Shown one piece after another: positions 7,220-10,811 of a stretch of 15,363 bases of DNA. How positions within the stretch are numbered: position 1 is the first letter of the stretch; each line of letters begins with the position of its first letter. A program made the position numbers and the translations under genes. The DNA is taken from UHGV virus genome UHGV-0120107, one strand, 5' to 3'. The notes below the pieces were generated by a model that saw only the letters and a program-made list of their open reading frames with translations, was not told the origin of the DNA and searched no databases. The DNA is from a virus.

Positions 7220-7558
7220 ATGGACACCGTTAACGGAATGTGTTCAGACGCACCGCGTGCCAAAAAATGTAAATGCGGAAAATCACCGACAATATTCGAC
7301 ATGGAGAACGGGTGCCAAATCTACTGCGCTAACCACGCCGCTGTGGCGGCCGCGAATTATCGCAGTGCGGTAACGGAGTGGGAAGATGGAGCAAGGCGTA
7401 ATAGGTACTGGAAATCATCAAGCCTTCCAGTTTGTGAAAGATTCAACCACAGGCCAAAACCAAAACGTAGCCGGCGAGACAAAGTGTTGAAAAAACTCAT
7501 GCAAATTAACATGGCTGGTTTTGTCAGATTCGTGAGTGAAACGACTAACGGGGATTGA
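7220..7558 (+). CDS. Hypothetical Cys-rich protein (112 aa), first nin-region gene
   Basis: Strong RBS GAGGGGGA. Cysteine cluster CKCGKSPTIFDMENGCQIYCANH suggests a zinc-binding fold. Basic C-terminus. Confidence 0.55.
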   Translation: MDTVNGMCSDAPRAKKCKCGKSPTIFDMENGCQIYCANHAAVAAANYRSAVTEWEDGARRNRYWKSSSLPVCERFNHRPKPKRSRRDKVLKKLMQINMAGFVRFVSETTNGD

Positions 7559-7915: not shown

Positions 7916-8068
7916 ATGAGCGGAATAATAACCGGCATAGCAGCTGGCATGTGCGCTGGCTCAGCAGTCGCCGCAATCCTCTGGGATGAAGAGTGGAATT
8001 TGCGGACGTTTATCAAATATCAGGTTGCGGCACTTGGGATTGTTTCTGCAATGTACATTCTGAGGTGA
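7916..8068 (+). CDS. Small hydrophobic protein (50 aa), likely membrane peptide
   Basis: AAGGAG RBS at 7905..7910. ATG overlaps the previous stop. Translation MSGIITGIAAGMCAGSAVAAILWDEEWNLRTFIKYQVAALGIVSAMYILR. Below the track cutoff. Confidence 0.45.
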   Translation: MSGIITGIAAGMCAGSAVAAILWDEEWNLRTFIKYQVAALGIVSAMYILR

Positions 8069-8083
8069 GTATGAGGCCAACTT

Positions 8084-8533
8084 ATGCAAATCGAGATGAT
8101 CAAGACCGCAGGGGGAGTATTCGCTCCGGCGTTTGAGCATGACCTTCCCCGCCTTACCAAGTTCCAAAACGGCGAGATGTACACAGCCGAATTCAAGTTA
8201 ACCCGCAATCCTGCATTCCATCGAAAAATGTTCGCGTTCTTCAACTTCTGCTTTCAGCACTGGGCTGCTGACAAGGCAGGTCTTGAGCATGCCGACGAAA
8301 CCACTCAGTTCAACCGGTTCAGAAAAGACCTGACGATACTGGCTGGCTTCTACGACATGGTGACGAACATTCGCGGTGAGGTTAGGGCAGAGGCTAAAAG
8401 CCTGTCATACGGCAGCATGGAGGCAGATGAATTCGAGCGTTGCTACAGCGCCATGATTAACGCAGCTATCAAGCATGTGTTTGGCAAGACGAAAGACCAG
8501 AACGTGCTGAATCAGCTCTACAACTTTTTCTGA
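8084..8533 (+). CDS. Hypothetical nin-region protein (149 aa); possibly DUF1367/YbcN-like
   Basis: GAGG RBS. Sits where DLP12-type prophages carry ybcN. The family assignment is a tentative recollection. Confidence 0.55.
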   Translation: MQIEMIKTAGGVFAPAFEHDLPRLTKFQNGEMYTAEFKLTRNPAFHRKMFAFFNFCFQHWAADKAGLEHADETTQFNRFRKDLTILAGFYDMVTNIRGEVRAEAKSLSYGSMEADEFERCYSAMINAAIKHVFGKTKDQNVLNQLYNFF

Positions 8534-8539
8534 GGTTAT

Positions 8540-8722
8540 ATGGGAAAGCAGCGACGAAGCATAACTCAAATCGCAATGGACAACCTGATATTCATCCCCA
8601 CCAAACGCTCCAGAAACAAACCCAAGCCAGTACCTTCCGAATAAGACGTAACGACCTTTAACTACACCGCGCACCTGTGGGATATCCGCTGGCTGCGTGA
8701 CCGTGCGAGGAAAACAAGGTGA
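8540..8722 (+). pseudogene. ninE: ninE-like gene interrupted by an in-frame TAA stop at codon 35
   Basis: ATG at 8540 (GAGG RBS) encodes [34 protein letters not shown], then TAA at 8642..8644. The same frame continues DVTTFNYTAHLWDIRWLRDRARKTR to TGA at 8720..8722. Both halves resemble lambda NinE (60 aa) as I recall it. Confidence 0.5.
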
Positions 8723-8889
8723 TTGACCCAAATCGAAGTTACGAACAAGAAAGCGTAGAGCGAGCTTTAACGTGCGCTAACTGCGGTCAGAAGCTGCATG
8801 TGCTGGAAGTTCACGTGTGCTCCGATTGCTGCGCAGAACTGATGAGCGATCCGAATAGCTCAATGTACGAGGAAGAAGACGATGAGTGA
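8719..8889 (+). CDS. ninF: NinF-like small zinc-ribbon protein (56 aa)
   Basis: GTG start overlapping the ninE stop. Translation VIDPNRSYEQESVERALTCANCGQKLHVLEVHVCSDCCAELMSDPNSSMYEEEDDE with two Cys pairs. Resembles lambda NinF as I recall it. Confidence 0.55.
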   Translation: MIDPNRSYEQESVERALTCANCGQKLHVLEVHVCSDCCAELMSDPNSSMYEEEDDE

Positions 8890-9094
8890 TTACCTGAAAT
8901 GGTATCTCTGCCACCGCTGGTTAATTAAGTGTGCTGTAAAAGACTGGATGACAGCGGATGCCAACAAGCTTAAGCAAAGAAAAGACTATTACTACGCCAG
9001 AATGAAGGAAAACTACTGCTCAATTCGCACTCGCATATTTATTAAAAAAGACCTTCAGTCAATTCTTCAATTGCGAGGGAAGGTAAATGGCTAA
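8882..9094 (+). CDS. Hypothetical protein (70 aa), nin region
   Basis: ORF track. GAGGA upstream. Overlaps the ninF 3' end and the next gene's start. No recognisable motif. Confidence 0.45.
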   Translation: MSDYLKWYLCHRWLIKCAVKDWMTADANKLKQRKDYYYARMKENYCSIRTRIFIKKDLQSILQLRGKVNG

Positions 9095-9377
9095 CCTACG
9101 CAAAGAAGCACGCGGCAGAGAATGTCAGGTACGTATTTACGGCGTATGCAATGGCAATCCTGAAACTACAGTTCTGGCACATTACCGGATGGCTGGAATT
9201 TGCGGAACGGGAATGAAACCTGACGACCTGATCGGCGCATGGGCTTGTAGCGACTGCCACGCTGAGATCGACCGACGCACCCATAACCTCAACAACAAAG
9301 ACGCCAGACTTTACCACCTCGAAGGCGTGATCAGGACGCAGGCGATACTGCTGAAGGAGGGGAAGATTAAACCATGA
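9087..9377 (+). CDS. Cys-rich protein (96 aa), YbcO/DUF1364-like putative nuclease
   Basis: ORF track. Cysteines at C..C, C and C..C (CQVRIYGVCNGN, ...GICGTG, CSDCHAEIDRR). Lies immediately upstream of rusA as ybcO does in DLP12-type prophages. Family name from memory. Confidence 0.55.
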   Translation: MANLRKEARGRECQVRIYGVCNGNPETTVLAHYRMAGICGTGMKPDDLIGAWACSDCHAEIDRRTHNLNNKDARLYHLEGVIRTQAILLKEGKIKP

Positions 9378-9736
9378 ACGAATATCAGTTTGTGCTTCCA
9401 TACCCGCCGTCGCTGAATACCTACTGGAGAAGACGGGGAAGCCAATACTACATCAGCGATAAAGGCCAGAAATACCGAAAAGACGTTCAGCAAATCATTC
9501 GCCAACTCAAGTTAGACATTTTCACCAAATCACGACTCCGTATCAAAGTCATCGCAGACGTTCCAGACTCCCGCCGCCGCGACCTCGACAACATCCTGAA
9601 AGGTTTACTCGACTCCCTTATCCACGCCGGATTTGCGGAAGACGACGAGCAATTCGATGACATTCGCGTAATTCGTGGTGTGAAAGTACCAGGCGGACGG
9701 CTTGGAATAAAAATCACCGAACTGGAGAACGTATGA
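9374..9736 (+). CDS. rusA: RusA Holliday-junction resolvase (120 aa)
   Basis: Matches RusA along its length as I recall it (...LPYPPSLN.YWRR..., ...DVPDSRRRDLDN..., ...GGRL.I.ITEL...). Overlaps neighbours by 4 nt on both sides. Confidence 0.85.
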   Translation: MNEYQFVLPYPPSLNTYWRRRGSQYYISDKGQKYRKDVQQIIRQLKLDIFTKSRLRIKVIADVPDSRRRDLDNILKGLLDSLIHAGFAEDDEQFDDIRVIRGVKVPGGRLGIKITELENV

Positions 9737-9921
9737 ACGCCACAATTCAAACGATACCAGAACTGCTTATACAGGCACGAGGCAATCAGACCGAAGTGGC
9801 GAGGATGCTTTCCTGCGCAAGAGGAACAGTGCTCAAGTACAACCGAGACAGAAAAGGCGAGCGTCACGTAATAGTTAACGGCGTCCTGATGGTCAAACAG
9901 GGCAAGAGGGGAAGACGATGA
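9733..9921 (+). CDS. ninH: NinH-like protein (62 aa)
   Basis: ...TIPELLIQARGNQTEVARMLSCARGTVLKYNRD... resembles lambda NinH (...YGNQTEVARRLKCSRGTVRKY...) as I recall it. Sits immediately upstream of Q. Confidence 0.7.
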   Translation: MNATIQTIPELLIQARGNQTEVARMLSCARGTVLKYNRDRKGERHVIVNGVLMVKQGKRGRR

Positions 9922-10541
9922 GACTCGAAAGCGTAGCTAAATTTCATTCGCCAAAAAGCCCGATGATGAGCGACTCACCACGGGCCACGGCTTCTGACTC
10001 TCTTTCCGGTACTGATGTGATGGCTGCTATGGGGATGGCGCAATCACAAGCCGGATTCGGCATGGCTGCATTCTGTGGTAAGCACGAACTCAGCCAGAAC
10101 GACAAACAAAAGGCTATCAACTATCTGATGCAATTTGCACACAAGGTATCGGGGAAATACCGTGGTGTGGCAAAGCTCGAAGGAAATACTAAGGCAAAGG
10201 TACTGCAAGTGCTCGCAACATTCGCTTATGCGGATTATTGCCGTAGTGCCGCGACGCCGGGCGCAAGATGCAGAGATTGCCACGGTACAGGCCGTGCGGT
10301 TGATATAGCAAAAACAGAGCAGTGGGGGAGAGTTGTCGAGAAAGAGTGCGGAAGATGCAAAGGCGTCGGCTATTCAAGAATGCCAGCAAGCGCCGCATAT
10401 CGCGCTGTAACGATGCTAATCCCAAACCTTACCCAACCCACCTGGTCACGCACTGTTAAGCCGCTGTATGACGCTCTGGTGGTGCAATGCCACAAGGAAG
10501 AGTCAATCGCAGACAACATTTTGAATGCGGTTACACGTTAG
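9918..10541 (+). CDS. Q: Q late-gene antiterminator, lambda type (207 aa)
   Basis: Full-length match to lambda Q as I recall it (MRLESVAKFHSPKSPMMSDSPRATASDSLSG...), followed by a lambda-type PR'/qut region. Confidence 0.9.
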   Translation: MRLESVAKFHSPKSPMMSDSPRATASDSLSGTDVMAAMGMAQSQAGFGMAAFCGKHELSQNDKQKAINYLMQFAHKVSGKYRGVAKLEGNTKAKVLQVLATFAYADYCRSAATPGARCRDCHGTGRAVDIAKTEQWGRVVEKECGRCKGVGYSRMPASAAYRAVTMLIPNLTQPTWSRTVKPLYDALVVQCHKEESIADNILNAVTR

Positions 10542-10583
10542 CAGCATAATTGCCACGGATGGCAACATATTAACGGCATGATA

Positions 10584-10612
10584 TTGACTTTTTGAATAAA
10601 GTTGGGTAAATT
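10584..10612 (+). promoter_or_regulatory. PR' late promoter with qut region
   Basis: -35 TTGACT (10584..10589), 17-bp spacer, -10 TAAATT (10607..10612), 43 bp downstream of Q. Sequence closely resembles lambda PR'. Confidence 0.7.
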
Positions 10613-10619
10613 TGACCCA

Positions 10620-10811
10620 ACGATGGGTTAATTCGCTCGTTGTGGTAGTGAGATGAAAAGAGGCGGCGCTTACTACCGATTCCGCCTAGTTGGTCACTTC
10701 GACGTATCGTCTGGAACTCCAACCATCGCAGGCTGAGAGGTCTGCAAAATGCAATCCCGAAACAGTTCGCAGGTAATAGTTAGAGCCTGCACAACGGTTT
10801 CGGGATTTTTT
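10620..10811 (+). ncRNA. 6S-like late leader RNA ending at the tR' terminator
   Basis: About 190 nt from the predicted PR' start to a strong terminator: 10-bp stem ATCCCGAAAC/GTTTCGGGAT (10754..10763 and 10797..10806) followed by TTTTTT. Confidence 0.6.

Follow-up and report, generated by a model that had tools for sequence, protein, structure and literature searches.

A Premature Ochre Codon in ninE of a Mosaic Lambdoid Phage from a Metagenome Assembly: a Probable Single-Base Loss-of-Function Allele

Locus and gene order

The DNA analyzed here (the window, a stretch of 15,363 nucleotides [nt]) is contig NODE_552_length_15363_cov_278.63 of ENA assembly ERZ1755925, the name of which gives a k-mer coverage of about 278×. 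All of it is phage DNA, comprising the early-right and lysis region of a mosaic lambdoid phage. The left part carries, in order, N, a cI-like repressor gene, a cro-like gene, cII, O, a gene for a 626-amino-acid (aa) primase/helicase, and small nin-region genes, including one of the DUF7301 family; the right part continues with a DUF1367/NinB-Orf-like gene, ninE, ninF, a 70-aa open reading frame (ORF), and genes for YbcO, RusA, NinH, Q, holin, endolysin, Rz, and terminase. The position of ninE, downstream of a NinB/Orf-type gene, directly upstream of ninF, and between the replication genes and Q, is canonical, and phages lambda, HK97, and mEp043 share the order. The neighboring genes in the window are intact and of normal length. 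Features at the locus were as follows.

8084 to 8533, plus strand: DUF1367/NinB-Orf-like recombination mediator gene, 149 aa (Pfam DUF1367; phrog_319, NinB/Orf)
8540 to 8644, plus strand: truncated ninE frame, 34 codons and then TAA (Pfam NinE, 48 bits)
8642 to 8644, plus strand: premature TAA (ochre) at codon 35, from TCA (Ser) by C-to-A at 8643
8645 to 8722, plus strand: untranslated ninE remnant, codons 36 to 60 plus the original TGA, in frame, with the conserved DVTTFNYTAHLWDIRWLRDRARKTR block
8707 to 8711, plus strand: Shine-Dalgarno-like GAGGA, 8 nt upstream of the ninF GTG and inside the Arg-Ala-Arg-Lys codons of ninE
8713 to 8714, no strand: mosaic junction in the last ninE codons; homology to relatives L006 and L014 ends at 8713
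8719 to 8889, plus strand: ninF, 56 aa (Pfam NinF, 51.7 bits; phrog_672, 123 bits)
8405 to 8731, minus strand: antisense shadow ORF, 108 aa, opened by the same C-to-A (antisense TGA to TTA)

The GTG start of ninF overlaps the original ninE TGA as GTGA, a layout found also in lambda, HK97, and mEp043. The gene at 8084 to 8533 sits in the NinB position; it is assigned to DUF1367 and not to NinB by Pfam, and to the NinB/Orf recombination-mediator family by PHROGs. Its exact 149-aa protein was found in Enterobacter, Salmonella, and Cronobacter records.

Further upstream, the DUF7301 gene (7220 to 7558) encodes 112 aa versus the usual 60 to 71 aa and its N-terminal part, some 55 residues, is novel and rich in Cys (CKCGK...GCQIYC). 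Ordinary DUF7301 genes show DNA homology to this gene only from about 7382 onward, a pattern suggestive of a gene fusion or of a mosaic joint inside the gene. The exact 112-aa protein was found only in contigs of this phage.

The ninE frame

A NinE-family frame opens with ATG at 8540, meets TAA at 8642 to 8644 (codon 35), and continues in frame to TGA at 8720 to 8722, just as an earlier note made from the sequence had read it; the name ninE that it gave to the gene was likewise correct, as the frame matches Pfam NinE (PF05322). Against a curated membership cut-off of 25 bits, the 60-aa read-through product scored 113.2 bits (E value, 5e-33; profile positions 1 to 58 of 58) and the N-terminal 34 aa alone scored 48.4 bits (E value, 9e-13; profile positions 1 to 34 of 58). 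Because read-through raises the score from 48 to 113 bits, the 25 codons past the TAA still encode the NinE C terminus. As judged from sequence, the resemblance to NinE is far beyond chance.

Lambda NinE is 60 aa long, as the earlier note had it, and HK97 NinE is of the same length. The alignment with lambda ninE that the earlier note proposed, extended to HK97, was gap-free across 183 nt, and codon 35 was TCT (Ser) in both phages. Like the NinE genes of lambda and HK97, to whose products its read-through product is 73% identical, the window gene lies between a NinB/Orf-like gene and ninF and shares the GTGA overlap. Unlike the intact family, which includes lambda NinE, HK97 gp63, P22-like proteins, the 58-aa proteins of Enterobacter and Salmonella, and the 56-aa protein of DLP12, its frame stops at codon 35; DLP12 NinE, also brought into the comparison, continues beyond codon 34. 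The CxxC motif of lambda-type NinE is missing from the N-terminal half encoded in the window (ICENC to AMDNL) and from the whole Enterobacter-type subfamily.

No uninterrupted ORF of about 56 to 60 codons is present at ninE in the window. With TAA at codon 35 and homologs mostly of 58 or 60 aa, the gene is therefore a disrupted member of the family (a pseudogene or a truncated allele) and not an intact one. Past the TAA, the remnant offers no ATG, GTG, or TTG in frame, and the C-terminal part therefore cannot arise as a product of its own. The exact 34-aa product is on record nowhere as a called gene.

Mosaic structure

About two thirds of the window matched Escherichia coli prophages at 94 to 96% identity. 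The segment from 8065 to 8713, spanning the DUF1367 gene and ninE, is of the Enterobacter/Salmonella/Cronobacter prophage type and 98.6% identical to L006; complete E. coli genomes yielded no ninE of this subtype, and in two of them the upstream DUF1367 gene alone was matched. Downstream of the junction and through Q, the longest aligned segments were those of mEp043 (95.9% identity, 8597 to 10626) and of a Salmonella phage (96.3% identity, 8747 to 10641). By these alignments, ninE is a recombinant in which an Enterobacter/Salmonella-type body carries a lambda/HK97-type 3' end (Thr-Arg-stop), followed by a lambda-type ninF. The hybrid frame has 60 codons, versus 58 in the Enterobacter type.

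Codon 35 in related genes

The related prophages carry a sense codon where the window has TAA, a point that the earlier note had wanted checked. All of the closest intact relatives (L006, L007, L009, L012, L014, and L005) have TCA at codon 35, and just 5 of 174 positions separate the window ninE from the nearest intact genes; one C-to-A transversion, at 8643, thus accounts for the TAA. In a set of 98 other full-length ninE loci, codon 35 reads TCT 80 times, TCA 17 times, and ACT once, that is, Ser in 97 and Thr in 1; the 80 IMG/VR loci in this count of intact genes are best tblastn matches, a sample biased toward intact genes, from which the rate of disruption cannot be read without bias. When proteins were searched with the read-through product, 77 clusters were returned, 76 of which had a precomputed Pfam NinE hit. 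The top 25 clusters were 53 to 60 aa long (nearly all of them 58 aa), came from Enterobacter and Salmonella, were 86 to 94% identical to the query, and followed the pattern ...KPKPVPTESDV(T/K)TFNYTAHLWDIRWLRDRARK. The read-through product is 88 to 93% identical to the 58-aa proteins of Enterobacter and Salmonella prophages, with 88 to 97% for the "QIAMDNLIF" subfamily.

The earlier note had left three options for the TAA: the gene is nonsense mutated, the base is a sequencing error, or the allele is truncated in nature. The evidence supports the first of these, with a one-step change from TCA to TAA at a near-universal Ser35. The idea that NinE homologs might normally end here was refuted, as none of the 77 protein clusters and none of the 98 other full-length loci ends at residue 34. 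The option of an error is taken up with the assembly records below.

Besides the 98 full-length loci, only one other disrupted ninE was found, in L016 (IMGVR_UViG_2035265002_000006). This gene, of the same subfamily and on the minus strand near 8562 to 8589, is frameshifted after about codon 44 (...TFNYTAPVGYPLVA*). Both genes are disrupted, but the lesion in L016 is a frameshift rather than a nonsense codon and is independent of the one in the window.

Intact ninE is often left uncalled in public assemblies, where it appears as a gap of about 175 nt (L006, 4457 to 4633; L104, about 8510 to 8684; L107, about 8872 to 9046; L109, about 7995 to 8169), so a missing gene call is not evidence of disruption. 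We also noted a natural NinE variant (P0045 and P0051; L015, 4457 to 4633) with the same N-terminal 38 residues and a different C-terminal half (YDPVWPLLSKRWLRQRARK), which corresponds to a separate PHROG family (phrog_32968) and suggests that NinE may be built from two exchangeable halves.

Sequence removed by the stop codon

Within the family, residues 35 to 58 are better conserved than residues 1 to 34 (mean top-residue frequency, 0.92 versus 0.79), and Ser35 occurs in 97% of 76 clusters of homologous proteins. The conserved C-terminal block S-D-V-x-T-F-N-Y-T-A-H-L-W-D-I-R-W-L-R is encoded past the stop (8645 to 8701) and is absent from the product. An AlphaFold2 model of an intact relative was weak (pLDDT, 70; pTM, 0.24), and its only long helix (residues 44 to 57) also lies past the stop; no solved structure related to NinE by sequence was found.

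The change of TCA (Ser35) to TAA would truncate NinE. Translation would stop after 34 residues, with loss of the most conserved half (SDVxTFNYTAHLWDIRWLRxRARK) and of the longest predicted helix, and for this reason the window ninE is most likely inactivated, a loss of function that we deduce from conservation.

Assembly records and searches for the allele

Two further assembly records carry the same allele. One is an 8.45-kb stretch of a 142-kb scaffold (L013; ERZ28586267, HEQI17-1_SAMEA4431911) and the other a 1.66-kb Logan contig from run ERR1620298 (L103), and both are base-identical to the window, including the TAA. The three agreeing records may derive from one sample or read set and so are perhaps not independent. 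Exact-pattern scans for the TAA allele in species-representative genomes, IMG/VR, and JGI metagenomes gave no match, nor did an earlier, more specific pattern in IMG/VR. When codon 35 was left free and the downstream variants linked to it were scanned for, no carrier turned up, and no parent allele or second carrier was found in the scans outside the contig family of the window. The scan of genome contigs gave no match even with codon 35 left open, so that collection is uninformative on this ninE subfamily. On these searches, the TAA allele appears private to one phage lineage.

Four substitutions near the stop are private to this lineage, namely, 8636 A>T (Thr33Ser), 8643 C>A (Ser35 to stop), 8653 A>G (synonymous), and 8659 C>T (synonymous). 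They span 24 nt (8636 to 8659), with five other differences from L006 across 649 nt (permutation P, about 0.016). Instead of a single point mutation, the cluster could mark a small patch converted from an allele not yet sampled, or else mutations that arose in a local burst. After the stop, the window differs from L006 at only two positions, both synonymous, which fits a recent event.

Weighing of alternative explanations

Strains can be mixed in metagenome assemblies, and the true codon might be TCA, with the A at 8643 a consensus error or a minority variant chosen by the assembler. The confinement of the TAA to records tied to this contig family, with none in species-representative genomes, IMG/VR, or JGI metagenomes, would agree with such an artefact, as would the three further private substitutions within 24 nt of the stop. 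However, a consensus substitution error is very unlikely at the depth of about 278× given by the contig name, and the three records are base-identical over 1.6 to 8.4 kb with the TAA included. Agreement of the records and depth together make an assembly or consensus error unlikely, and we assign it a very small share of the probability. A slightly larger share, though still a small one, goes to the view that the 34-aa peptide keeps or modifies NinE activity and that the allele is tolerated or even favored for it. The 34 N-terminal residues match the NinE profile by themselves, and the match to phrog_32968, with its shared N terminus and different C-terminal half, hints at modularity. Against this view, about 100 loci and 77 protein clusters include no other ninE that ends at this point, conservation in the family is highest in the half that is lost, and the allele appears confined to a single phage lineage. 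To a natural, self-sufficient mini-NinE, or the related case of a conversion patch from an unsampled lineage with an established short form, we likewise give a very small probability.

Full-length NinE might still be made if an ochre suppressor tRNA or programmed read-through carried translation past the TAA, and the 25 downstream codons are indeed intact and in frame, with two changes relative to L006, both synonymous. Such intact downstream sequence is equally expected after a recent mutation, though, and the stop is not conserved, as none of the 98 other full-length ninE loci has one at codon 35. In enterobacteria, a UAA with G after it terminates translation efficiently, and the stops used for programmed read-through are normally conserved and leaky. 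No tRNA gene and no match to an Rfam family was found within the 15.4-kb window, RNA folding of 8600 to 8740 around the stop was no more stable than that of shuffled sequence (z = 0.51), and no promoter-like or terminator-like site was found within 8540 to 8722. Read-through of this kind is very hard to credit. We have just as little confidence that the C-to-A change was a gain on the other strand, where it opens the 108-aa ORF at 8405 to 8731, and that this ORF is a selected product. In each of the six close relatives examined, a TGA at the matching codon closes the antisense frame, which is open in the window allele alone, and in L103 one gene caller placed an 89-aa antisense gene here instead of ninE. 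The ORF has no Pfam match, however, starts with TTG, has no promoter-like site found on the minus strand near 8731, and shows no conservation as an open frame; its exact antisense codon register to two sense genes is the classic position of a shadow ORF. As a gene, it was rejected as a shadow ORF on the closed frames of the relatives and the lack of a Pfam match.

The reading that we favor, and hold with high confidence, is a genuine single-base nonsense mutation that makes a loss-of-function allele of ninE in a lambdoid phage or prophage known from a metagenome assembly.

Expected consequences and parallels

A loss of NinE by nonsense mutation should have few effects downstream. The untranslated gap from the TAA to the start of ninF is only 74 nt, and ninF should be translated without coupling to ninE, by way of GAGGA. 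An N-peptide gene was called on the contig (about 1909 to 2271, minus strand), and as the phage thus encodes an N-type antiterminator, Rho-dependent polarity on Q is unlikely. With a ribosome-binding site of its own kept by ninF and an N antiterminator gene present, we expect the stop to have little downstream effect and no polarity on downstream genes.

Lambda still forms plaques when its nin region is deleted, and the nin genes are nonessential (PMC10695390). In the viable Shigella phage Sf6, one nin gene has a premature nonsense codon and another an IS911 insertion (PMC5630979). As in Sf6, a dispensable nin-region gene has here been knocked out by a premature stop while other genes are intact (PMC5630979); the gene and the phage differ from those of Sf6, however, and viability here is suggested by the intact neighbors and the high coverage. 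The mutation is probably near-neutral, given that the nin region is dispensable, that ninF has its own ribosome-binding site, and that an N-type antiterminator would protect early transcription. It is probably also recent; both the intact neighbors and the purely synonymous differences from L006 past the stop are in keeping with a near-neutral knockout of recent date in an otherwise intact phage.

This kind of finding is already known, an ordinary knocked-out accessory gene with no new biological feature. For annotation, the locus should be labeled a ninE pseudogene or truncated allele; it should be neither left unannotated nor called as the spurious antisense ORF. What NinE does is the real question, and the TAA allele does not bear on it. 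NinE is evidently useful in nature though unneeded in the laboratory, since about 98% of the sampled ninE copies (an upper estimate, as the IMG/VR loci were picked as best protein matches) are intact and highly conserved. For this phage, the allele would add one more dispensable nin-region gene knocked out while all of the neighboring genes are intact.
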